Of a stretch of DNA of 64,000 nt, positions 3,304 to 22,581 are shown piece by piece (the stretch's first letter is position 1; every line of letters begins with the position of its first letter). Where the stretch lies: the IMG/VR virus record IMGVR_UViG_3300028197_000003, positions 128,352-192,351 of that record; one strand, given 5' to 3'. Source of the DNA: a virus. The position numbers and the translations under genes were made by a program. Below the pieces are notes generated by a model. That model ran no database searches. It worked only from the letters and a program-made list of their open reading frames with translations, and was not told the DNA's origin.

Positions 3304-3975
3304 ATGTTCAAATTTCTTCTGGCAGGGTTCCTGTTAGGCGGTTCTCTCCCTGCAATTGCGGAACCTCTCAAAGATAATGAGTATTACTCTATGCATTCTA
3401 TGGGGTGTATGCTACTCGGTGAATGCACTGAAGGTGTAGAGAAAGTGTACTCTTTGTTGGATGTATCATCTGAATACCCCAACCCAGAAAAGTTTACTGG
3501 AGTGACAGGTGAGTTCAACAATATGATTCACTCCTTGAATCAGATTGGAGTGAATGTATTCCTTGCGGATGAGAAGTATTTTCCAGTAGGACATCGTGGT
3601 GTCTATCATACTGTGAGTAATAACTTCTTTTTGAACAAAGCATTTATGTCACGCCCTGGTGTATTGATGAGTGTGATGAGACATGAAGGATGGCATGCAG
3701 CACAAGATTGTATGGCAGGAACGATTGATAATAGTTTGATTGCTATTATTATGCCTGAAGATGATGTGCCAATGTTGTGGCAAGAGATGGTGAAGCGGGC
3801 ATATATGTTGCAACCATCTGCAATTCCATGGGAGAAGGAAGCAATGTGGGCAGGTAAGACTGAAAACATGACTATGAATGCTCTTGCAGCATGTGCTGGT
3901 GGTAATATGTGGGAAGTATATGAACCGACTCCACTCACACGTCAATACTTAGAGGAGAATGGTTTTATTGAATGA
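3304..3975 (+). CDS. HExxH (zincin-like) protein with signal-peptide-like N-terminus
   Basis: RHEGWHAAQ motif, downstream EKEA; hydrophobic N-terminus ending AIA-E. Confidence 0.65.
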   Translation: MFKFLLAGFLLGGSLPAIAEPLKDNEYYSMHSMGCMLLGECTEGVEKVYSLLDVSSEYPNPEKFTGVTGEFNNMIHSLNQIGVNVFLADEKYFPVGHRGVYHTVSNNFFLNKAFMSRPGVLMSVMRHEGWHAAQDCMAGTIDNSLIAIIMPEDDVPMLWQEMVKRAYMLQPSAIPWEKEAMWAGKTENMTMNALAACAGGNMWEVYEPTPLTRQYLEENGFIE

Positions 3976-4211: not shown

Positions 4212-5537
4212 ATGTCGCCTTCAGTAAATCAACCATGGGATAAACTGAAAACATGTTTGGTTGGTAGATCATATCCTCCTGAATTTTATAGTTACATCAA
4301 GGATCCTAGGGCACGTGCTGGGATGGAAAGGATTGCACAAGAAACTGAAGAGGATTTTGTAATACTGTCCAATAAACTTATTGAGTTAGGCGTTGATGTA
4401 ATTAGAACTAATATTTCTGACGACTGGAAGAAGGATCATAACTGGGGTTACCGTGCCGATTATCCCTCTGCCATGATCCCTCGTGACCATACTATGGTTC
4501 TGGGAAACAAGTTATACATGCCGAATCATGATTATTTGGAGGATGTAAATGTCGAACATATGCTCTATGCTATCCGGGACAATGCTGAGTACGCAAAAAA
4601 TCAACCAGAAGCAGAAGTCCTTAGTGAGTATCTTTTAGATCTTGTCAAACCTGGACGTGGTGCTAAAGGTCAGGCTGCTGCATCTAAAGAGGTTGTTGAG
4701 GAAGCACATAAGTTTTTGTCAGATGGAAAAGACTTTCCTATTCATTGGTTGATGCAGGTATTGCACGTTGATGATGTCACTAGATTGTGTGAGAGTGCTG
4801 CGACAAATACCATTGGCAATCCACGTCGAGTCAATAAAAAATACAATGAGTTTCAAGATGCAGAGAAGTGGTTCAAAGAACAGGGAGGAGAGGTTGTTTA
4901 TAATTCGTATGTGAATGGTGCTTCGACAATCAAGTGTGGAAAGGATCTTTACTTTGCCATCAATAATATTCTTACTTATATCAATGAGGACTATGCTCTT
5001 GAGAAATGGCAGAAGATGTTCCCTGATTATAGAATCCATCCACTACATTTCCCTGGACATTCTGACGGATCATTGGCACCAATCAAACCTGGGTGCTTGA
5101 TTAGTATTGGCGATGCAAAGCACACTGATATAACTTTCCCTGGTTGGGATGTTTGTCAGGTCGTGGGTCAAGGTTGGTCTCAAGTAGAAGAGTTCACCAA
5201 CATGAAACATTCATTACCAAATAATGGACGTTGGTATGTTGCTGGTGAAGAAAAAAATGATGCTCTAACTGATTTTGTTGAAACCTGGTTGAATGATTGG
5301 GTCATTTACGTTGAGGAGACTGTATTTGATGTCAACATGCTTGTGGTTGATGAGCAGAATGTCATCGTCAACAACTACAATAAAGATGTTTTTGATTTCT
5401 TTGAGAAGCATGGTGTGACTGGGCACGTGGTCAACTTTAGGCACCGTTACTTCTGGGACGGTGGACTACACTGTATTACTACTGACCTGGATCGCGAAGG
5501 AGAAAGACAGGACTTCTTCCCAGAGCGTTCTAAATAA
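4212..5537 (+). CDS. Amidinotransferase/pentein-fold protein, paralog 1
   Basis: WDKLKTCLVG, PRD, HSDG and GGLHCIT motifs typical of glycine/inosamine amidinotransferases. Confidence 0.8.
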   Translation: MSPSVNQPWDKLKTCLVGRSYPPEFYSYIKDPRARAGMERIAQETEEDFVILSNKLIELGVDVIRTNISDDWKKDHNWGYRADYPSAMIPRDHTMVLGNKLYMPNHDYLEDVNVEHMLYAIRDNAEYAKNQPEAEVLSEYLLDLVKPGRGAKGQAAASKEVVEEAHKFLSDGKDFPIHWLMQVLHVDDVTRLCESAATNTIGNPRRVNKKYNEFQDAEKWFKEQGGEVVYNSYVNGASTIKCGKDLYFAINNILTYINEDYALEKWQKMFPDYRIHPLHFPGHSDGSLAPIKPGCLISIGDAKHTDITFPGWDVCQVVGQGWSQVEEFTNMKHSLPNNGRWYVAGEEKNDALTDFVETWLNDWVIYVEETVFDVNMLVVDEQNVIVNNYNKDVFDFFEKHGVTGHVVNFRHRYFWDGGLHCITTDLDREGERQDFFPERSK

Positions 5538-5555: not shown

Positions 5556-7019
5556 ATGCCATCAGCATTCCAACCGTGGGATAAACTAAAAACGTGCTTG
5601 GTAGGTCGGTCATATCCTCCAGAGTTTTATAGTTACATCAAAAATCCCAAAGCACGTGCTGGGATGGAGAAAATTGCTCAGGAAACTGAGGAAGACTATC
5701 AAAAACTATGCGACAAACTAACAGAGTTAGGTGTTGAGGTAATTAGAACTAATATTTCTGACGACTGGGAGAAGGATCATGACTGGGGGTACCGGGCTAA
5801 GTATCCCTCGGCAATGGTTCCAAGAGATCACCTTGCGGTGATTGGTGACAAGTTATACATGCCGAATAGTGACTACTTGAAGAACGTTGATCTTCGCGAG
5901 ATGATCAATGGTCTTCATAATCCAAACTGTAAGCATGAGTGGTTGCAACCGGGTGCTGAGTTGGTTGCAGAGTTCATCCTCGACATGATGAAACCTGCTA
6001 GGGGTGTGAAGAATATGGATCCCATTGAGGAACTGCGTGATTTTTATCACAACCATGGTTCACAACGTCGGGATGGAAATACTTATAGCATAAGCGGACT
6101 GTTGTCTGGGTTAGACCTGGCGGACATGGAGAGACTGTGTTTGAGTGCTGTTACTAATACAATTGGCGATCCTCACAGAGTCAACAAAGAATATAATGAG
6201 TATCAAGATGCAGAGAAGTGGTTCAAAGAAAAAGGAGGGGAGGTTGTTTATAATCAGTACGTCAACGGTGCTTCAGTAATTCGTTGTGGTAGAGATCTAT
6301 ATTTCTCTATGAACAACATCATGAACCTTGCCAATCAAGATATGTTCATGGAGAAGTGGGAGCGTCTGTTCCCTGAGTTTAGAAACCATCCTCTGTATGT
6401 TCCTGGACATGGCGACGGTTCTTTGACTCCAGTCAAACCAGGACTGTTGGTTTCTATTGCTAAAACTGAATTCTTTAGCGAAACTTTTCCTGATTGGGAG
6501 GTTGCACATATTCCGGGTGCTGGATGGAAACAAGTGGATGGTTTTCTGAAGATGAAGAAGAAAAATAAGGGACGCTGGTGGGTTCCTGGAGAAGAAGACA
6601 ACGATGACCTAACGGAGTTCATCGACACTTGGTTGAACGACTGGGTAATCTACGTTGAAGAGACTGTCTTTGATGTCAATATGCTTGTGGTTGACGAGAA
6701 GAATGTTATCTGTAATGGATATAACAAGACGGTCTTTGATGCCTTTGATAAGCATGGAATTACAGGTCATGTCGTGAACTTTAGGCACCGTTACTTCTGG
6801 GATGGTGGACTGCACTGCATCACCCTCGACCTGGATCGTGAGGGAGAGATGCAAGACTTCTTCCCAGAGCGTGGTGATGAAAGTTATGTCATCCAGGACC
6901 CAAGGAACGACAAGAAATCACCACTGTATAACAAGTGGGATGCTTACGATAAGCAACGTCCTAACTTCAAAAAAGATCAGGAGATTAGGCAAAACCAAAA
7001 TCAAGAATCAGTTTCCTAG
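5556..7019 (+). CDS. Amidinotransferase/pentein-fold protein, paralog 2
   Basis: Same motifs (PRD, HGDG, GGLHCIT); N- and C-terminal blocks near-identical to paralog 1. Confidence 0.8.
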   Translation: MPSAFQPWDKLKTCLVGRSYPPEFYSYIKNPKARAGMEKIAQETEEDYQKLCDKLTELGVEVIRTNISDDWEKDHDWGYRAKYPSAMVPRDHLAVIGDKLYMPNSDYLKNVDLREMINGLHNPNCKHEWLQPGAELVAEFILDMMKPARGVKNMDPIEELRDFYHNHGSQRRDGNTYSISGLLSGLDLADMERLCLSAVTNTIGDPHRVNKEYNEYQDAEKWFKEKGGEVVYNQYVNGASVIRCGRDLYFSMNNIMNLANQDMFMEKWERLFPEFRNHPLYVPGHGDGSLTPVKPGLLVSIAKTEFFSETFPDWEVAHIPGAGWKQVDGFLKMKKKNKGRWWVPGEEDNDDLTEFIDTWLNDWVIYVEETVFDVNMLVVDEKNVICNGYNKTVFDAFDKHGITGHVVNFRHRYFWDGGLHCITLDLDREGEMQDFFPERGDESYVIQDPRNDKKSPLYNKWDAYDKQRPNFKKDQEIRQNQNQESVS

Positions 7020-7022
7020 AAA

Positions 7023-7046
7023 CCGGAAAAAAAACTCGGGCAAAAA
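7023..7046 (+). repeat. A-tract junction motif, copy 1
   Basis: CCGGAAAAAAAACTCGGGCAAAAA; recurs at 13936 and 22558. Confidence 0.75.
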
Positions 7047-8312: not shown

Positions 8313-8871
8313 GAAGTGGGAACTTCCGGAAGGTACTATAAAAACTCTCAAGGAAAGATACGATGATTCTTTTTTCCTAAAGGGAGGAGAAGATTCGATT
8401 GAGAACAGAAAAAATTGGGGACAACATTACACTGGGTTTCATAAAAATCCAAACAATAAAGCACCAACTGTTGAAGGTAACTTTATTGATAAGGATCTCC
8501 TACAACTTTATGTCCCTAAACTAAAGAAAATCCTTGGTGACATTGGATTGCCCATGGGCAAAACCATTTACAGTTACAGTAGTATTTGGGGACAACTATA
8601 TAAACGTGACCTTGAAGCGGTCATTGATGTTCACAATCACTACGAAGATCCACGTCAATTGATTTCGTGGGTTCACTTTGTTGATGTCCCTGACACTAAA
8701 CTGTTTTACTTTCAGGTTGGAGATAAAAAAATCTATCCTAAATGTCAAAAAACAGGTGACATTATCCTATATCCATCTTATGCTATGCATGGTGTGGACA
8801 TGATGACTGAGGGGAAAGACCGCTTTGTTGTCGTTGGTAACATAGTAAAACTCAACCAAAATCGCTGGTAA
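8296..8871 (+). CDS. Putative 2OG-Fe(II) oxygenase (HxH...H type)
   Basis: VHNH...WVHFV...YPSYAMHGV...DRFVVVGN. Confidence 0.65.
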   Translation: MILYSEKWELPEGTIKTLKERYDDSFFLKGGEDSIENRKNWGQHYTGFHKNPNNKAPTVEGNFIDKDLLQLYVPKLKKILGDIGLPMGKTIYSYSSIWGQLYKRDLEAVIDVHNHYEDPRQLISWVHFVDVPDTKLFYFQVGDKKIYPKCQKTGDIILYPSYAMHGVDMMTEGKDRFVVVGNIVKLNQNRW

Positions 8872-9108
8872 ATGAAAGCAGTAATTTACTCGAAGAACGA
8901 TTGTCAATGGTGTGATAGGGTTCGTCAACTGCTTGTGTCAGTTGATATTGAATACCTTGAGTATAAACTTGACAAAGATTTCACAAAAGATCAATTCTAC
9001 AATGAGTTTGAGGAAGGTGCTACCTTCCCACAAGTCTCTATCAACAACAAAGCAATTGGTGGATGCAAAGAGACACTCCATCATCTTCAAACTCTGGAGA
9101 TGATTTGA
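8872..9108 (+). CDS. nrdC: Glutaredoxin
   Basis: CQWC active site, TFPQV, IGGC. Confidence 0.92.
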   Translation: MKAVIYSKNDCQWCDRVRQLLVSVDIEYLEYKLDKDFTKDQFYNEFEEGATFPQVSINNKAIGGCKETLHHLQTLEMI

Positions 9109-9222
9109 TAAACAAGGGCACCCTTCTGATGTATAATAGAAGGAAACCCCGCTACAAACTAATACCTCTTCTCAAAATATTTGGCAAGAGATTTTCGCTA
9201 CATATAGAAAGGGAGAATTAGC

Positions 9223-9453
9223 ATGGCACTTGATCCAACTACTGTCTTTTTCGTAATGTTTGCAGTGATCATGCTACAAACAATTGCAATTGGTTTAGTG
9301 ATTGGGTACCTAGTCCGTACTTACATCCACGATGTAACTCCCCAGTATTCTCACCCTGAGATGTTCGATGAGCATGGTAATCCTGTTGCCGACACTCTAA
9401 TCTCTTTCCGATTTGAAGGTGAGACCCCCTACCTCGATGAATTTGAAGACTAA
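9223..9453 (+). CDS. Conserved cyanophage membrane protein
   Basis: TM helix then HPEMFDEHGN and acidic tail. Confidence 0.7.
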   Translation: MALDPTTVFFVMFAVIMLQTIAIGLVIGYLVRTYIHDVTPQYSHPEMFDEHGNPVADTLISFRFEGETPYLDEFED

Positions 9454-9455
9454 TT

Positions 9456-9911
9456 ATGGCAACGTCAAAACTTCCTAACAATCCTTTGGTCTCCGAACTG
9501 TTCAGAGCAGTACACGGTGCTAAGACTGTGGATAAAAAGGTTGAAATTTTAGAACAACACAAACGGGATGATGTAAAGGCAATCCTTATCTGGAACTTTG
9601 ATAAAGGTATCAAGTCTGCTATCCCTGAGGGAGATGTTCCCTATAAGAGGAACGAGTCTCCTGCTGGTACTGATGGTCACACTCGTCTGGTGCATGAGTG
9701 GAGGTCATTGTATAACTTTATTCGTGGGGGCAACGACAAACTATCTCAGATGCGCCGGGAAACCTTGCTGATTCAACTCCTAGAGTCACTTCATGCTGAC
9801 GAAGCAGAGATTGTTACTCTGACTAAAGACAGTGAACTGCAGAGTAAGTATCGTATTACTCGTAATGTTGTGGAGAAAGCATATCCTGAGATCAATTGGC
9901 GTGATAAGTGA
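9456..9911 (+). CDS. Conserved T4-like hypothetical protein
   Basis: Typical cyanomyophage ORF in the glutaredoxin-thyX block. Confidence 0.7.
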   Translation: MATSKLPNNPLVSELFRAVHGAKTVDKKVEILEQHKRDDVKAILIWNFDKGIKSAIPEGDVPYKRNESPAGTDGHTRLVHEWRSLYNFIRGGNDKLSQMRRETLLIQLLESLHADEAEIVTLTKDSELQSKYRITRNVVEKAYPEINWRDK

Positions 9912-11020
9912 AGTTTCTCATTGATCTAACAGATCATTGTAACTCCAAGTGTCCTCTATGTGCTAGGCATAAGACATCATATAATGATGAGGTTGCGGTG
10001 CTTGCACCTGACCCATCAATGAACCTGTCAAAGATTTCACTTGATCAATGGAAGACATGGTTCCCACAAAAGACCCTTGAGAAGACAGAGTTGATCTACT
10101 TCCAAGGGTCTTTTGGTGAGCCAACATTGTGTGATGATCTGCTTGAGATATATGCCTATACTCTAAAGTCAAATCCCAATATTGTTTTCCAAATGAGTAC
10201 CAATGGAGGCACTCGTGACGATGCATTTTGGGGAAGACTTGGTGCTCTCATGGGAGCATCACATAAAGATAGTTTCCTCATCTTTTCTATTGACGGTCTA
10301 GAGGATACGCTGCAGCATTACCGCGTAGGTGTGGACTATAAGAAGGTGATGAGGAGTGCTAAAGCATTCATTGCGGCAGGTGGTCCTGCTGTCTGGAGGA
10401 TGCTAGTCTTCAAACATAACCAACATCAGATAAAAAGATGTAAGACGTTGAGTAAACTGTGGAAGTTCAAAGACTTTCAACATACTCGTGTCAATGATAT
10501 GTATGACGCTAGTGGTCGTGGTGATGGTAAATTTACGTACTCATACAGAGATAAGGTGCATACCTTACAAGTAGCAGACGATCCTGACCATGTGTACCAC
10601 CCAGACCCCGTAGCAGAGGACTCAGAGGTGGTGTGCCGCTATAAGCATAGCAAAGGTACTCCTGGTCAACTGAGGATCGATAGCAGGGGTGTGGTGCATG
10701 CCTGCTGCTTCCATCAGTCACGCCTTAGGTTCTTCTACCCTGGATATTATATTGACAATGATCCTGATGCACCTGCTGTCTTCCGTGACATCAAAAACCC
10801 AAACAAGGGAGTGGGTGCAGAATACATGCAAAAAGTTTTCTGGGACAGCGTTATCCCTTTGATTGAAGAGCAGGGAGGTATCAAATCTATCTCATTGGAA
10901 CACAAATCGTTACAAGAGGTGCTACAGACTCCCTTTTTCCAGCATACTCTGGTAGACTCTTGGAGTAGTAAACCACACATCTGTGCGGACTATTGTGGGA
11001 AGAAAAGACGTGTCGATTGA
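9908..11020 (+). CDS. Radical SAM protein with SPASM/twitch-like C-terminal Cys
   Basis: CNSKCPLC, GEPTL, STNGG, C-terminal C...CC...CADYC. Confidence 0.9.
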   Translation: MKFLIDLTDHCNSKCPLCARHKTSYNDEVAVLAPDPSMNLSKISLDQWKTWFPQKTLEKTELIYFQGSFGEPTLCDDLLEIYAYTLKSNPNIVFQMSTNGGTRDDAFWGRLGALMGASHKDSFLIFSIDGLEDTLQHYRVGVDYKKVMRSAKAFIAAGGPAVWRMLVFKHNQHQIKRCKTLSKLWKFKDFQHTRVNDMYDASGRGDGKFTYSYRDKVHTLQVADDPDHVYHPDPVAEDSEVVCRYKHSKGTPGQLRIDSRGVVHACCFHQSRLRFFYPGYYIDNDPDAPAVFRDIKNPNKGVGAEYMQKVFWDSVIPLIEEQGGIKSISLEHKSLQEVLQTPFFQHTLVDSWSSKPHICADYCGKKRRVD

Positions 11021-11531: not shown

Positions 11532-11570
11532 AAGGGAAGGTTTGACACCTTCCCTTTTTTGTTTTATAAT
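11532..11570 (+). promoter_or_regulatory. Overlapping terminator and sigma70 promoter
   Basis: AAGGGAAGGT-TTGAC-ACCTTCCCTT+T run; TTGACA(11542)-N17-TATAAT(11565). Confidence 0.8.
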
Positions 11571-11576
11571 ACAACC

Positions 11577-11729
11577 ATGGAACGAGACAAACTCAAGATT
11601 ATTGTTTCCGATTTGGAAATGCTTCTCAGTGCTCTCAAAGCAGAGGTCTACTCTGATGTGGCGTCTTACCGTTTCGACGAGTGTGACCCTGTTGAGCAAA
11701 ACTACGACGAAATTTACGAAGGTCCATGA
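11577..11729 (+). CDS. Small conserved cyanophage protein
   Basis: MERDKLKIIVSDLEMLLSALKAEVYSD...; ATGA overlap with thyX. Confidence 0.7.
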   Translation: MERDKLKIIVSDLEMLLSALKAEVYSDVASYRFDECDPVEQNYDEIYEGP

Positions 11730-12373
11730 CAGTAGAACTTATCAGTGTTACTCCTGATTCTGAGCAGATGATGGCGTACATTGCTCGTGTGAGCAATCCT
11801 GCTAATCAAGAGAATGAAAAGTATTCTGGTCTACTAAAGTATTGTATCAAGCACAACCATTGGAGTGTGTTTGAGCAATCAACAATGACTTTGGAGATCT
11901 TTACAACTAGAGCAATCGCAGCTCAAATTTTGAGGCACCGCTCATTCACATTCCAAGAGTTTTCACAAAGATATGCTGACACTAAACTGCTGAAGGATAA
12001 CATTCCTCTTCCTGCAATGCGTCGTCAGGATACTAAGAATAGGCAAAATAGTATTGATGATTTGGATCCATATACTATTCAGAAATTGGAGTTACAGATG
12101 CAAACTCTATTCTCCTCTGCACAATCACTTTACAATCAGATGCTAGAGGAGGGTGTCGCAAAGGAATGTGCAAGAATGGTGCTTCCACTGTGTACTCCCA
12201 CCAAAATCTACATGACAGGCTCATGCAGATCATGGATCCATTACATCAATCTGAGGTCTGAAAACGGCACTCAGAAGGAGCACATGGACATCGCTCATGC
12301 ATGTAAGAAGATTTTTATTGAACAGTATCCTTCTGTGAGTGAGGCATTGGAATGGGTAAAATCTGCGGAATAA
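11726..12373 (+). CDS. thyX: Flavin-dependent thymidylate synthase
   Basis: HWSVFE, RHRSFTFQEFSQRY signature, AR.VLP. Confidence 0.97.
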   Translation: MTVELISVTPDSEQMMAYIARVSNPANQENEKYSGLLKYCIKHNHWSVFEQSTMTLEIFTTRAIAAQILRHRSFTFQEFSQRYADTKLLKDNIPLPAMRRQDTKNRQNSIDDLDPYTIQKLELQMQTLFSSAQSLYNQMLEEGVAKECARMVLPLCTPTKIYMTGSCRSWIHYINLRSENGTQKEHMDIAHACKKIFIEQYPSVSEALEWVKSAE

Positions 12374-13344
12374 ATCTGTCGCATAATGGATCTCTTGCCA
12401 TCCTTGAGGATGGTGAGGTCCAATTCTACATTGAAGAAGAAAGATTGAGTCGTGTCAAGCGGGATAGGTCTGCTTTGACTGCTGCGACTCAATTTTTAGA
12501 TGATTCTATTGGTGTGGTCACTATATGTGACTGCTATACCACATACAATTTGAAAAAATACCTGTTTAGAACCAAGCAGGCAAACAAAATCATTGATCTA
12601 GTCAAGGAAAAAGGACTTCCTCTAAAAGATTATCGTGACAGGCATCATGAATGTCATGCAGCGAATGCATATTACAACTCTGAGTTCAAAGATGCTGCTG
12701 TCATCGTCATGGATGGTAAAGGTTCTTTGCACCATCATAAAGATCTGAAGTTCTGTGAGACTGAAAGTATTTTTGACGTAAACGACGGAAAGTTTGAGTC
12801 AGTCTTCAAACATTACTCTACGTTCTGGAGCGAAGATGAGTCTAACAAGTTAGGTTCTTCTTTCTGGGACGGTAAAAACTTTTACAGTAATAGGACCAGC
12901 GTTGGTCAGGCGTATCGTAGAGTGTCACGATACTGTGGGTTTGATGAAACTGATGCTGGTAAGACCATGGGTCTATCCACGTACGGTGCAGCACCCATAG
13001 ATCTATTTGAGATTGACAATGGGCATAGCGTGTGCTCTACTGAACTCAGTCCAGAAGGTAATACCACCAGGTATACTGGACATGAGTGGCACCCTGAAGA
13101 CTTAGCATATCGACTACAAAAGTCTGCTGAGGAACATGCTATGTTCATGCTTGAGAAAGCATACGAGTTGACCGGTAAGGAGAACGTGGTTCTTACAGGA
13201 GGATTTTTCCTCAACTGTATTGCAAACCACCAGCTCCTAAAAACTGGTATAAATTTGTATGTAGATCCCCTTGCTTATGATGGCGGTCTTGCCATCGGTT
13301 CTGCTCTATTAGAACATTATGAGAACACTGTACCTCGGTCCTGA
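12352..13344 (+). CDS. Carbamoyltransferase N-terminal (Kae1-like) domain protein 1
   Basis: GINLSHNGS, EEERLSRVK, HHECH, MDGKG, GKTMGL, DGGLAIG (NodU/CmcH/TobZ family). Confidence 0.88.
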   Translation: MGKICGINLSHNGSLAILEDGEVQFYIEEERLSRVKRDRSALTAATQFLDDSIGVVTICDCYTTYNLKKYLFRTKQANKIIDLVKEKGLPLKDYRDRHHECHAANAYYNSEFKDAAVIVMDGKGSLHHHKDLKFCETESIFDVNDGKFESVFKHYSTFWSEDESNKLGSSFWDGKNFYSNRTSVGQAYRRVSRYCGFDETDAGKTMGLSTYGAAPIDLFEIDNGHSVCSTELSPEGNTTRYTGHEWHPEDLAYRLQKSAEEHAMFMLEKAYELTGKENVVLTGGFFLNCIANHQLLKTGINLYVDPLAYDGGLAIGSALLEHYENTVPRS

Positions 13345-13915
13345 ATACGATCTTTCTTTTGTTGATGGTGAGGATGTAACTTACAAAGATGTAGCAGACA
13401 TCATCGCAGATAAAAAAGTAGTTGCAATGTTCCAAGGGAGATCAGAGGCAGGTCCTCGTGCTCTTGGAAATAGATCTTTGTTGTATGATCCTCGTGATCA
13501 TGAGGCACAGAAGACCGTCAACCTAATCAAAAAGCGTGAGCACTGGAGACCATTTGCTGCCAGTGTCATGCTTGAATATGCAAACGATTGGTTTGACATG
13601 CGTGGACTTGATGAGTCACCGTTCATGATGTATGCCATGGATGCACGTCCAGTTAGTTGGCATTTGATTCCAGGTGTCCTGCATATTGATAAGACTTGTC
13701 GTATTCAAACTGTTACTGAGAAACAGAACGAGCACTACTACAAACTAATCCATGCATTTTGGGACAAGACAGGCATCCCAATGCTGTTCAACACCTCATT
13801 CAACCTGGCAGGTGAACCATTAGTAGAGTCTCCGCAGGATGCATTCAAAACATTCTATGAGTCTGACATACCATACCTATACTTTCCAGAGGTCGGAAAG
13901 ATAGTGCGAAAATGA
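13319..13915 (+). CDS. Carbamoyltransferase C-terminal (YrdC-like) domain protein
   Basis: YLGPEY, FQGRSEAGPRALGNRS, KREHWRPFA, NTSFN. Confidence 0.92.
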   Translation: MRTLYLGPEYDLSFVDGEDVTYKDVADIIADKKVVAMFQGRSEAGPRALGNRSLLYDPRDHEAQKTVNLIKKREHWRPFAASVMLEYANDWFDMRGLDESPFMMYAMDARPVSWHLIPGVLHIDKTCRIQTVTEKQNEHYYKLIHAFWDKTGIPMLFNTSFNLAGEPLVESPQDAFKTFYESDIPYLYFPEVGKIVRK

Positions 13916-14727
13916 CTTTTCATTTACGAAAAAGTGGGAAAAAAACTCGGGCAAAAAATTTGCTCCTAGGGTTGAACCTGTCTAATAACGGATCTGCTTG
14001 TCTACTTGAGGATGGTAAACCTGTTTGGTATCTGGAGGCAGAGCGTGTTTCCTATGTAAAGTATGACTATGATATCAGGTCTCTACTTGATATGTTACCT
14101 GAGGGAATAGATCATATTGCTTTAGCAGATTCCTTTTGGAAACGTGGTAACAAGCAGGTTGATAACATCAAGATGTTGTCTGCTGTCAAGAGAAAGTTTC
14201 CTGGTGCTACACTGTATGACTACAGAAAAAAGCACCATATGACACACGCTGCATGTGGTTTCTACAACTCAGGATTTGAAACTGCCACTTGTATTGTGGT
14301 TGACTCTAATGGATCAAAAACACCTGAAGGTTTAGAGATAGAATCTATTTTCTTTGCTCCCACCTGGGGGGTAATTCATAAGACCATGTTCTCTCCTGAT
14401 AATATTGGATTTGGTAGGAGATTTGAAGAGGCATGTATAGAATATGGATGGCACTACATGGATGCAGGTAAGGTTATGGGAAAAAGTGTTTATAATTCTG
14501 AACCTGCCAAGTCTTTGCAGGCAGAGTGGGAGGAGAGGGTGTTAGAACTGATCCGTATGGCACCTACAACAAATATTGTCCTTGCAGGAGGATGTTTCTT
14601 GAATTGTGTAGCAAACTACAAGGCACTGGGAAGATTTCCTGATCATAGTTTCTATGCAGAACCACTAGCAAATGATGGAGGCACTGCCATGGGTGCTGCT
14701 TATTTGGCATATCATGGCATCAATTGA
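13912..14727 (+). CDS. Carbamoyltransferase N-terminal domain protein 2 (alternative TTG start at 13960)
   Basis: GLNLSNNGS, EAERVS, HHMTH, GKVMG, NDGGTAMG. Confidence 0.85.
   Translation: MTFHLRKSGKKTRAKNLLLGLNLSNNGSACLLEDGKPVWYLEAERVSYVKYDYDIRSLLDMLPEGIDHIALADSFWKRGNKQVDNIKMLSAVKRKFPGATLYDYRKKHHMTHAACGFYNSGFETATCIVVDSNGSKTPEGLEIESIFFAPTWGVIHKTMFSPDNIGFGRRFEEACIEYGWHYMDAGKVMGKSVYNSEPAKSLQAEWEERVLELIRMAPTTNIVLAGGCFLNCVANYKALGRFPDHSFYAEPLANDGGTAMGAAYLAYHGIN
13936..13958 (+). repeat. A-tract junction motif, copy 2
   Basis: GGGAAAAAAACTCGGGCAAAAAA. Confidence 0.75.
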
Positions 14728-15505
14728 CATCTTAGATATCAGCGCATCTATTGGTTGCAACCTTCAATGTAAGGGATGCAATCATTTCAGTAACTATTTT
14801 GCTCCTGGTAGTAAGGTAGACACTGACAGTTTGCTTGATGACATAGCAACTCTATTGCCTAGAGTAAATATAGGTAGAGTGTCCGTCATTGGTGGCGAAC
14901 CACTACTAAATCCCCGTTGTGAGGAGATTGTAAATGCATGTACAACACACACTGATTCTCCTGTCTATCTCTATAGCAATGGTCTATTGCTCCTACAGAA
15001 TGAAGCATGGATCAAAAAGAGTTTAGAGAATCCACAAATATTTCTTAGGATTAGCATTCATCTACCAGAAGTAGAACAGATTATCAAAGAGTTCAACCAC
15101 CCTAAGGTTCTTGTTACTGAGCATCATACTGGTAAAGATAGGTGGTTCAACTCTATCAAAAAGAGAGATGGTAAGGTCTATCCTTACGAGCATAAGAATC
15201 CCGCAAAGAGTTTCAAGGTTTGTTCTTGTCCTAATGCACAGTTGTATGGGGGGAAACTGTGGAAGTGTCCCAACACAGCATTTCTGAGGGAACTATTATA
15301 TGTGACTGATCAACAGAATGATCCTGAGTGGCAGGAGTATCTTGTCGATGGTGTTCCTGTTGATTGTAGTGATGATGCATTGACAAAATTCTGTACTAAT
15401 AGTAGACTCTCAGAAAGTGTATGTAACATGTGTACTGCCAAACCGATAAAGTTCAGTGCTGCACTGCAAGAACGGAGTAAACGAAAGGTTATTCCTTCAA
15501 AATAA
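14714..15505 (+). CDS. Radical SAM protein (paralog of 17445)
   Basis: CNLQCKGC, GGEPLL, SNG, CSCPNAQLY..KLWKCP, CNMC. Confidence 0.9.
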   Translation: MASIDILDISASIGCNLQCKGCNHFSNYFAPGSKVDTDSLLDDIATLLPRVNIGRVSVIGGEPLLNPRCEEIVNACTTHTDSPVYLYSNGLLLLQNEAWIKKSLENPQIFLRISIHLPEVEQIIKEFNHPKVLVTEHHTGKDRWFNSIKKRDGKVYPYEHKNPAKSFKVCSCPNAQLYGGKLWKCPNTAFLRELLYVTDQQNDPEWQEYLVDGVPVDCSDDALTKFCTNSRLSESVCNMCTAKPIKFSAALQERSKRKVIPSK

Positions 15506-17444: not shown

Positions 17445-18521
17445 ATGGATAAAAGAGAGTTCAAACTATCTCAGATCAAAAGTAATCTACCTGTAGATAA
17501 ACTTCACAGAATATCTGAGAGTGTGGACTTTGTTAGATCACAGAAAGGATTCTGGACAACTAACTTCAAACAGGTTACGCCTGAAGAGATTGCATCTCTT
17601 GAGTCAGAGCGACCTACCACAAGATTACTGAGTATCCATGTTATCAATGGGTGCAATCTTGCTTGTCGGGCATGTAATCACAACAGCAGTCTTCTTGGTA
17701 TGAAGAGTGGTGTAGATATTGATGCTTTGATAAAAGATATCAAAGAATTTCTACCAAAAGTATATGTTTGGAGTCATATAAGCATTATTGGGGGAGAACC
17801 TTTACTTGAACCCCGCACCAAAGAGGTCGTAAAGGTCACTAGAGAGGTCGCAGAAGCAACGGGGCAGACCTGTAACATAAAACTGTTTAGTAATGGTTCA
17901 CGCCTCATACAAGAGCAGGAGTGGATTGCTGATGAAATGTTGAAAGGTGTCAACTTCAGACTAACATTTCATAAACCCTGGTTTACTGAGTTAGGATCCG
18001 CCAACTGGGAAAACGCTGCAAAGTTTATTAGATATCTCCAGTCCCGCGATGTGGACACTGATAACTTTCTTGAATTTAGTGAGGCATTCCGTCTGCTTGA
18101 TGGTAAACCTAGGCAGTGGTTTGATCTTGTGCGTTATGAGATCAAGGAAGACCAGATCAAATACTATCCTTTTGAGGAAGGGAATCCTGAAGAAAGCTTT
18201 ACACACTGCACGTGTCCCAATAGTCAGTTGTATAATGGACACCTGTGGAAGTGTCCCATGATCTCCTACCTCAGAGAATCGTTGGATGCCACAGATCAAC
18301 TCAATGATCCTGAATGGCAGAAGTACCTGGCGTACAAACCAACTGACATCTCTGCTTCCCCAGATGACATCCGAGCATCATTTGATGAGGTAAAAAAACC
18401 TCATGAGATTTGTTCTATGTGTCCCCGCAACCCTGTGTGGTTTACTGCAACTGCACAATTGGATGCGAAATTGAAAAAAAACGTCGCAATGCATGATGAA
18501 GCAACCTATGACACCGTTTGA
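17445..18521 (+). CDS. Radical SAM protein (paralog of 14714)
   Basis: CNLACRAC, GGEPLL, SNG, CTCPNSQLY..HLWKCP, CSMC. Confidence 0.9.
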   Translation: MDKREFKLSQIKSNLPVDKLHRISESVDFVRSQKGFWTTNFKQVTPEEIASLESERPTTRLLSIHVINGCNLACRACNHNSSLLGMKSGVDIDALIKDIKEFLPKVYVWSHISIIGGEPLLEPRTKEVVKVTREVAEATGQTCNIKLFSNGSRLIQEQEWIADEMLKGVNFRLTFHKPWFTELGSANWENAAKFIRYLQSRDVDTDNFLEFSEAFRLLDGKPRQWFDLVRYEIKEDQIKYYPFEEGNPEESFTHCTCPNSQLYNGHLWKCPMISYLRESLDATDQLNDPEWQKYLAYKPTDISASPDDIRASFDEVKKPHEICSMCPRNPVWFTATAQLDAKLKKNVAMHDEATYDTV

Positions 18522-22557: not shown

Positions 22558-22581
22558 GGGAAAAAAACCTCGGGGCAAAAA
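22558..22581 (+). repeat. A-tract junction motif, copy 3
   Basis: GGGAAAAAAACCTCGGGGCAAAAA. Confidence 0.7.

Follow-up and report, generated by a model that had tools for sequence, protein, structure and literature searches.

A three-gene N1-C-N2 module of the TobZ/NodU carbamoyltransferase class in marine cyanophages

Relationship to described carbamoyltransferases

TobZ, NodU, CmcH, GdmN, NovN and VtdB are class III O-carbamoyltransferases that are built from two domain families (PF02543 and PF16861; PDB 3VEN, 7VYJ, 9S2T and 7XB6). Enzymes of this type are treated as obligately fused two-domain proteins, in which the intermediate passes through an internal chamber, and the characterized or solved members compared in this study are all single polypeptides with the N domain followed by the C domain. 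In contrast, the 64,000-nucleotide (nt) stretch of viral DNA analyzed here, referred to as the window, contains the same two families as three genes, N1, C and N2, with two N genes for one C gene. The window comprises bases 128352-192351 of the 192,351-bp IMG/VR virus record IMGVR_UViG_3300028197_000003, a metagenome-derived viral contig that is rated complete. The His-His-Asp-Asp metal site of the TobZ class is common to the Kae1-like proteins N1 and N2, C possesses the same YrdC-like motifs, and N1 keeps the histidine residue at the position of the general base. In N2, however, the base position is taken by an asparagine residue, and the protein falls short of the other aligned N domains by ~60-100 residues. 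Judged by domain content and metal-site residues, N1, C and N2 are members of the TobZ/NodU/CmcH family, but the module lacks two family features: the domain fusion, which was found only in loci L020, L105, L106 and L108, and the base histidine in N2. We propose, with a probability of about 60%, that N1-C-N2 is a three-subunit carbamoyltransferase of the TobZ/NodU class in which C would serve both N1 and N2 in trans, and which would thus act on two acceptors.

The homologous folds are also found as separate proteins in the t6A system, where the adenylate from the YrdC-type protein (TsaC/Sua5) is used by the Kae1-type protein (TsaD/Kae1/Qri7). Similar to the module, the t6A system includes a second Kae1-like paralogue, the inactive partner TsaB. 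Different from N2, however, TsaB does not keep the metal site. N1 scored 16.7 bits against the Pfam model TsaD (PF00814; cut-off of 24.8 bits), which had no match in N2, and C scored 19.1 bits against Sua5_yciO_yrdC (PF01300; cut-off of 25.1 bits). Given that these models were matched only below their cut-offs, the module is placed in the carbamoyl branch and not in the threonylcarbamoyl branch. HypF, which S-carbamoylates HypE on its C-terminal cysteine, has a YrdC-like domain followed by a Kae1-like domain (PMC6022934). This order resembles the gene order of C followed by N2, and the acceptor of HypF is a non-hydroxyl group on a protein, but Pfam did not reveal any acylphosphatase or Zn-finger domain in the module. 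The likeness of N2 to HypF_C_2 was rejected as a pointer to HypF: the score of the N2 of the window was 12.1 bits, with a cut-off of 27 bits, the matches of N2 orthologues were weak and mostly below the cut-off, and the likeness was also found in N1 and is therefore not discriminating.

A phage enzyme of the NodU/TobZ type was reported in the MetaGPA study (eLife 2021) to carbamoylate 5-hydroxymethylcytosine (5hmC) in DNA/RNA by using carbamoyl phosphate and ATP (PMC8670742). This enzyme is a fused protein of 63 kDa and co-occurs with dCMP hydroxymethylase homologs of the ThyA family (PF00303; PMC8670742). Similar to the module, it is found beside a thymidylate-synthase-type gene. The neighbor in the window, however, is ThyX (PF02511), one of the standard genes of cyanophages, and there is no sign of 5hmC DNA. 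The same study names W408, G421 and R423 as discriminating residues but does not give the states that accompany DNA modification.

The Nol-like carbamoyltransferases of T4-like cyanomyoviruses (phrog_1601 and phrog_20469; S-CAM8, S-CAM3, P-SSM2 and S-SSM7) are composed of the same families as the module. Cyanophages S-RIM44 and Sf-FP1 have a split pair, C followed by N, at the same thyX-phoH locus as the module of this study; their N proteins form a lineage separate from N1 and N2 in the tree, and both have histidine at the base position. S-SSM7 possesses a fused enzyme and an extra standalone N gene ('nol'). Such split C-N pairs and the standalone N gene of S-SSM7 are annotated in cultured cyanophages and are not discussed in the literature searched. 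Our literature search for described split NodU/TobZ enzymes found none, which is only absence of evidence. Genome papers annotate such genes loosely, e.g., as pyrimidine biosynthesis (PMC9146016), an annotation that their domain content does not support. Among the records of the INPHARED collection (August 2025), none had an N1-type or N2-type protein of >47% identity, the best being the single-cell-derived Marine virus AG-345-D19, and the N1-C-N2 triple was absent from the cultured phages.

Two additional observations concern these relatives. The N-domain gene of S-RIM44 (NC_047734; HOQ83_gp034; positions 3525-3606 of our locus L003) appears to begin further upstream than its RefSeq start: with the frame open from 3525 onward, an earlier ATG yields a protein starting with MRILGINISHHSSS, which restores the conserved N-terminal strand and the base histidine. 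In addition, the phage genome to which the window belongs encodes a second carbamoyltransferase, a fused protein of 459 amino acid residues with both Carbam_trans_N and Carbam_trans_C (L005:592-1971, corresponding to G000:C1 ~8321-9700). It has histidine at the base position and diverges strongly, on a long branch; the open reading frame (ORF) after it, of 280 residues, had no Pfam match.

Gene integrity, locus types and origin of the split

The initial annotation described two Kae1-like genes, each with HHxxH and both aspartate residues, around one YrdC-like gene with intact motifs, and this description was confirmed by the ORFs, by Pfam and by alignment to TobZ. Both N1 and N2 scored above the gathering cut-off of Carbam_trans_N (PF02543), which is 24 bits (Table 1), and this model was matched at E <= 1 by 20 of 20 N1 orthologues and 25 of 25 N2 orthologues. 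C aligned with positions 1-164 of the 170 positions of Carbam_trans_C (PF16861), and with the YrdC-like domains of VtdB, GdmN, NovN and TobZ at E values of 1e-37 to 1e-30. All three proteins were assigned to phrog_1601 ('Nol-like carbamoyltransferase'), and C also to the C-only phrog_20469. Aligned to TobZ, the metal-site residues are H98/H99/H102, D121 and D310 in N1 and H108/H109/H112, D131 and D255 in N2; they were invariant in the 20 N1 orthologues and the 25 N2 orthologues, respectively, and all five residues were intact in 143 of the 150 best family matches. The motifs QGRSEAGPRALGNRS, RPF, HxDxTCRxQT and NTSFN were invariant across 25 C orthologues. K71, M103 and S160 of C correspond to K443, M473 and S530 of TobZ, a mapping that is approximate and made by coordinate offset only.

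The general base of N1 in the window is His11 (in NLSHNGS), which aligns with His14 of TobZ. At this position, N1 orthologues had histidine in 19 cases and lysine in 35. The His/Lys switch sets L017, L021, L024, L020 and L108 against the window clade, L105 and L106; histidine was found in the basal fused forms and the window clade, and lysine in 35 other loci. This suggests that either residue can serve or that the acceptors differ.

The three genes are neither an assembly error nor decaying copies. A scan of viral contigs with N2 revealed the same N1-C-N2 junction in ten related contigs of 78-99% protein identity, all with identical frame offset, C-frame ATG and 26-nt overlap, and the N1-C-N2 layout was found in >50 independent viral contigs from the IMG/VR, ENA and TARA assemblies. 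Thus, assembly error, which the initial annotation had named as one way in which the split could turn out to be false, does not account for it. The pairwise ratios of nonsynonymous to synonymous substitution rates (dN/dS) ranged from 0.05 to 0.08 for N1, from 0.09 to 0.19 for C, excluding one near-identical pair with a dS of 0.02, and from 0.07 to 0.12 for N2, the same range as for the adjoining radical SAM gene. No internal stops were found in N1, C and N2 of the relatives compared. All three genes are therefore under strong purifying selection, and the N2 values also dispose of the second doubt that had been raised, that N2 is a decaying duplicate.

A profile built from seven N2 orthologues identified 317 N2-type stretches in IMG/VR, from which 80 loci were taken. 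After they were supplemented by contigs from ENA, TARA and JGI, 59 unique loci with thyX visible upstream were compared. The gene order was thyX-N1-C-N2 in 24 of these 59 loci, thyX-N1-denV-psbN-C-N2 in 23, thyX-N1-denV-C-N2 in 2 and thyX-denV-psbN-C-N2, in which N1 is absent, in 9, and one locus had thyX followed by a fused N1-C gene and N2. Three further fused loci (L105, L106 and L108) consisted of thyX, an N1-C gene for 526-539 residues, N2, a radical SAM gene, a small gene and phoH. In AG-345-D19, the order was thyX-C-N2-radical SAM-phoH, also without N1. thyX was upstream of the module in every locus whose flank was long enough, and N1 was upstream of C in the same direction in 50 of the 59 loci. 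All 89 C/N2 junctions that could be read had C immediately before N2, and in 81 of them the two genes overlapped by ATGA. In the loci without N1, thyX and denV were spaced by 18 nt, and the median dN/dS values were 0.063 for C and 0.096 for N2. Given the adjacency of C and N2 at 89 of 89 junctions and the existence of loci without N1, C-N2 is the invariant core of the module and N1 its variable, optional part, absent from 9 of the 59 loci and from AG-345-D19. The idea of the initial annotation that one activating subunit serves two transferase subunits fits these comparative data, but the equivalence of N1 and N2 that it implied does not hold: C-N2 is constant, N1 is optional and N2 has the asparagine. 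The split is real and old, and the module, which is common across viral metagenomes of the sea, is informative about evolution; it is a cyanophage accessory module with 317 N2-type matches in IMG/VR and no cultured representative in INPHARED.

The gene found exactly between N1 and C at L017:3783-4295, L021:5956-6689 and in ~25 other loci is denV-like (Pfam Pyr_excise) and usually accompanied by psbN. The standalone N gene of S-SSM7 is likewise followed by denV.

The search with N1 yielded ~100 clusters of standalone N1-type proteins of 318-347 residues, which were 56-64% identical to N1. The identities to N1 were 50-53% for the nearest fused N1-C forms (528 residues) and 44-45% for further fused ones. 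In the maximum-likelihood N-domain tree, a single clade (support 100/99) united the standalone N1 proteins; it was sister to a fused group of 526-528 residues (99/98), and both together were sister to a fused group of 538-551 residues. Every fused N1-C relative sampled was in the same thyX-phoH locus and was followed by N2. Because the N1 clade is nested among fused enzymes from the same locus, all of them with N2 next in order, the split is derived, and the tree places a complete fused N1-C plus an extra, C-less N2 at the ancestral state. A single split event is supported by the linker, in which an internal methionine aligns with the start methionine of split C in two of four fused relatives (SMKTLYLGP in L020 and MKLESLYLGP in L105), and by the tails of standalone N1 proteins, which are homologous across clades (ENTVPRS, ENTLLRS and ENIIPRT). 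From a fused N1-C and C-less N2 at the thyX-phoH locus, N1 would have been parted from C by a frameshifting mutation in the linker; in other lineages, insertion of denV and psbN between N1 and C, or loss of N1, would then have left the C-N2 core.

At one locus, marine cyanophages thus provide a natural series that runs from a fused enzyme with an extra N, through the split and the separation by other genes, to the loss of N1. The series suggests that the half-reactions can be uncoupled by dividing them between separate polypeptides and that the adenylating subunit is probably kept together with a transferase subunit that has no canonical base. Moreover, three small proteins make it possible to test whether carbamoyl-AMP needs to be channeled and what the role of a Kae1-like transferase without the histidine is.

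The N2 subunit and the use of C in trans

N2 was 28% identical to N1. In the tree, N2-type proteins, together with the sole N protein of AG-345-D19, were separated from other phage N domains by a long branch (0.72; 90/97). A search of 1.84 billion representatives with an N2 profile revealed only three N2-type clusters at 50% identity, with 266-283 residues and scores from 465 to 276 bits; below these clusters, the score fell to 222 bits, where N1-type and other N domains appeared. No C domain fused to an N2-type protein was found in that search. At the position of His14 in TobZ and His27 in GdmN, N2 had asparagine (Asn25 in the window) in 91 of 91 loci. Histidine occupied this position in 131 of the 150 best family matches and in all N domains of cultured phages aligned, whether fused or split. 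With asparagine at the base position, N2 is therefore not a canonical transferase. In addition, N2 lacks two internal segments, roughly residues 148-170 and 214-250 of N1. By a rough offset, the second gap may overlap the region bearing loop 4' of GdmN, which helps to close the acceptor pocket of the partner. The confident structure model of N2 (pLDDT of 87.3 and pTM of 0.86) matched the fold of TobZ best (TMq ~0.72), superposing on its Kae1-like domain, then those of GdmN, NovN and VtdB, and Kae1 and TsaD were lower. The best PDB sequence match of N2 was 3vex, which according to its entry title is TobZ H14N crystallized with the carbamoyl-adenylate intermediate bound. GdmN H27N gave no detectable product (PMC9633730).

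In the proposed three-subunit enzyme, which would belong to the ATP- and carbamoyl-phosphate-dependent class, three separate polypeptides would be made from one operon-like unit. C would make carbamoyl-AMP, and N1 and N2, which are deeply diverged and keep the metal/adenylate site, would take it from C in trans and transfer the carbamoyl group to two different acceptors. The intermediate could be handed over by docking of the N subunits on C, as in the fused enzymes, or by diffusion; in t6A synthesis, threonylcarbamoyl-AMP diffuses from TsaC to TsaD, which serves as an analogy for the latter. Because asparagine replaces the general-base histidine and two internal segments are missing, the acceptor of N2 would be one that does not need the base, or a bulkier one, rather than the usual small-molecule hydroxyl. 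From these comparisons we infer that both N subunits use C in trans, that there are two acceptors and that N2 is catalytically competent. The use of C in trans is favored by the findings that N2 never has its own C domain and that C-N2 persists without N1. Moreover, the complete genomes of S-RIM44 and Sf-FP1 yielded no carbamoyltransferase other than a split C-then-N pair; thus, pairing in trans is viable in cyanophages. N1 most likely still needs C, as its ancestral domain relied on this C in cis and none of its metal-site residues has been lost.

A more specific possibility, which we regard as tentative, is that the N2-type proteins, known to date from uncultured viral sequences alone, form a new TobZ/NodU branch. 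Such a compact, naturally occurring 'H14N' subunit would always work in trans with a C partner, either free or fused to N1, and its acceptor would be macromolecular or lack a hydroxyl. Candidates would be an amine or a thiol on a protein, a nucleotide or a nucleic acid. In that case, one carbamoyl-AMP synthase would feed two chemically different transferases during cyanophage infection.

Several points weigh against the three-subunit enzyme. The contigs without N1 and AG-345-D19 are genome fragments, and N1 or another carbamoyltransferase may lie elsewhere in those genomes. The C domain of the fused 459-residue enzyme could in principle also supply the intermediate. In the C-domain tree, 10 of the 16 inner branches were open, and co-descent of C with N1 or N2 was not resolved. 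The genes on either side are of the ordinary kind for T4-like cyanophages and give no pointer to an acceptor. Finally, the asparagine of N2 is the very change that leaves the carbamoyl-adenylate bound in TobZ H14N and that is inactive in GdmN H27N, and N2 may not transfer carbamoyl at all.

This last point leads to an alternative that we consider rather unlikely, in which N2 is a pseudoenzyme that binds metal and carbamoyl-AMP/ATP without transfer and acts as a scaffold, regulator or holder for N1 and C, similar to TsaB. The asparagine found in 91 of 91 N2-type genes, versus histidine in 131 of 150 other N domains, would fit such a role, as would the behavior of the two mutants, of which TobZ H14N holds the intermediate and GdmN H27N has no detectable product, and the absence of two segments that N1 and the other aligned N domains possess. 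However, the five metal-site residues are invariant in N2 and its dN/dS is ~0.1, whereas TsaB-type scaffolds have lost the metal site. Moreover, C-N2 is kept under purifying selection without N1 (9 loci and AG-345-D19), and a role limited to assisting N1 does not account for this.

Improbable, too, is that only C and N2 form a pair, and that N1 uses carbamoyl-AMP from the fused 459-residue enzyme or has a different adenylate-dependent function. N1 can lie as far as ~1 kb from C, some lineages do without it, and the same genome indeed has that second complete carbamoyltransferase, but the latter is very distant (long branch). In addition, the origin of N1 in a domain for which this C worked in cis, the retention of the same metal and adenylate residues and the position of N1 upstream in the same direction in 50 of the 59 loci all argue for a continued partnership of N1 and C.

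The initial annotation also noted that N1 and C overlap by 26 nt at the YLGP linker and raised the possibility of fusion by a +1 frameshift. The overlap was confirmed at 13319-13344, with the C protein starting as MRTLYLGP and the final residues of N1, ENTVPRS, coming from the codons that encode RTLYLGP in the C frame. The fusion is very unlikely. A programmed +1 frameshift in the overlap, e.g., in the context TCC-TGA-A of the N1 stop, would still make one protein of N1 and C, and all 14 distinct junctions of the adjacent type do conserve the +1 offset. UCC-UGA is the shift site of the antizyme type, and a +1 slip at TCC TGA A in the window would enter the C frame at EYDLSF. Such a slip, however, would replace the conserved YLGP linker. 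The C-frame methionine was also conserved in all 14 junctions, the ATG being present in every adjacent-type locus and matching the internal methionine of fused relatives, and in nearly all of the 14 this methionine was preceded, two codons upstream, by a stop in the C frame. The position of the N1 stop varied among the junctions, giving overlaps of 26, 53 or 56 nt. Read in the C frame, the differences among contigs in the overlap were synonymous or conservative (T, L, Y or F), preserving RTLYLGP, whereas they altered the N1-frame tail (ENTVPRS, ENTLSRS and ENSFPRS); thus, selection acts on the reading of C. Given that denV, with or without psbN, separates N1 from C in 25 of the 59 loci and that N1 is absent from 9, C must be translated alone there. 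Genes with a programmed +1 frameshift lack a downstream start and have a conserved shift site and constant contiguity, a combination that N1 and C do not show. Independent initiation of C is the economical reading.

Finally, that the split arose from faulty assembly or sequencing, or that N1 or N2 is a decaying remnant, might be suspected from a metagenome-derived record in which the split looks like a single frame change, but is refuted by the ten matching junctions, the >50 contigs from three sources and the dN/dS values of 0.05-0.19 without internal stops reported above.

Setting of the module in the window

The gene content of the window is of the T4-like cyanomyovirus type, including genes for a photosynthetic reaction-centre protein, gp32, PhoH, ThyX and 2OG-Fe oxygenases (Pfam), and its DNA matched Synechococcus and Prochlorococcus phages for the most part. 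N1-C-N2 is placed between thyX and a block of radical SAM and phoH genes (Table 1).

Table 1. Features of the N1-C-N2 locus; positions refer to the window.
Feature	Position	Strand	Remarks
N1, standalone Kae1-like transferase subunit (330 residues)	12352..13344	+	Carbam_trans_N, 95.6 bits
C, standalone YrdC-like subunit (198 residues), predicted carbamoyl-AMP synthase	13319..13915	+	Carbam_trans_C, 202.6 bits
N2, compact Kae1-like subunit (271 residues)	13912..14727	+	Carbam_trans_N, 46.7 bits
N1/C overlap, 26 nt, C in the +1 frame	13319..13344	+	ORF coordinates and comparison of relatives
ATGA overlap of the C stop codon with the N2 start codon	13912..13915	+	4-nt overlap in 81 of 89 C/N2 junctions
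A-tract element GGAAAAAAACTCGGG	13937..13951	+	Encodes GKKTR within the N2 5' extension
thyX, flavin-dependent thymidylate synthase	11726..12373	+	Pfam Thy1, E 1.7e-47; left neighbor, 22-nt overlap with the N1 start
Terminator-like hairpin (11532-11556) overlapping a sigma70-type promoter, TTGACA-17-TATAAT (11542-11570)	11532..11570	+	12 of 12 promoter match
Radical SAM gene	14672..15505	+	Pfam Radical_SAM and Fer4_12; downstream of N2

The promoter and hairpin immediately precede a small ORF and thyX. From its consensus match only, the promoter is a candidate for a thyX-N1-C-N2 unit. The signal scan did not reveal any promoter or terminator of comparable strength within N1-C-N2, and a single strong promoter upstream of thyX with no internal terminator is consistent with co-transcription of thyX, N1, C and N2.

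The radical SAM gene downstream of N2 was rejected as an obligate partner of the module, as it was absent or replaced in many loci, although it is a frequent neighbor. It is one of three radical SAM genes within 9 kb of the window, the others being at 9908-11020 and 17445-18521. The one at 17445-18521 is its paralogue (~36-38% identity by tblastn); in every related locus, it was flanked by core replication genes. Two large adjacent ORFs, at 4212-5537 (441 residues) and 5556-7019 (487 residues), had no Pfam match at E <= 0.001.

The A-tract element near the start of N2 is one of three copies of GG-A7/8-C(C)TCGGG-CAAAAA in the window, where 0.05 would be expected. The copies at 7026-7040 and 22560-22574 are intergenic and directly follow stop codons, whereas the copy at 13937-13951 forms codons 9-14 of N2. 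The element was kept at the nucleotide level at most C/N2 junctions; in L016 it reads as a mini-ORF out of frame, and it was absent where N2 starts directly with MNILG (L020, L105, L106 and AG-345-D19). Read as GGA AAA AAA, it is formally a slippery heptamer of the X XXY YYZ type.

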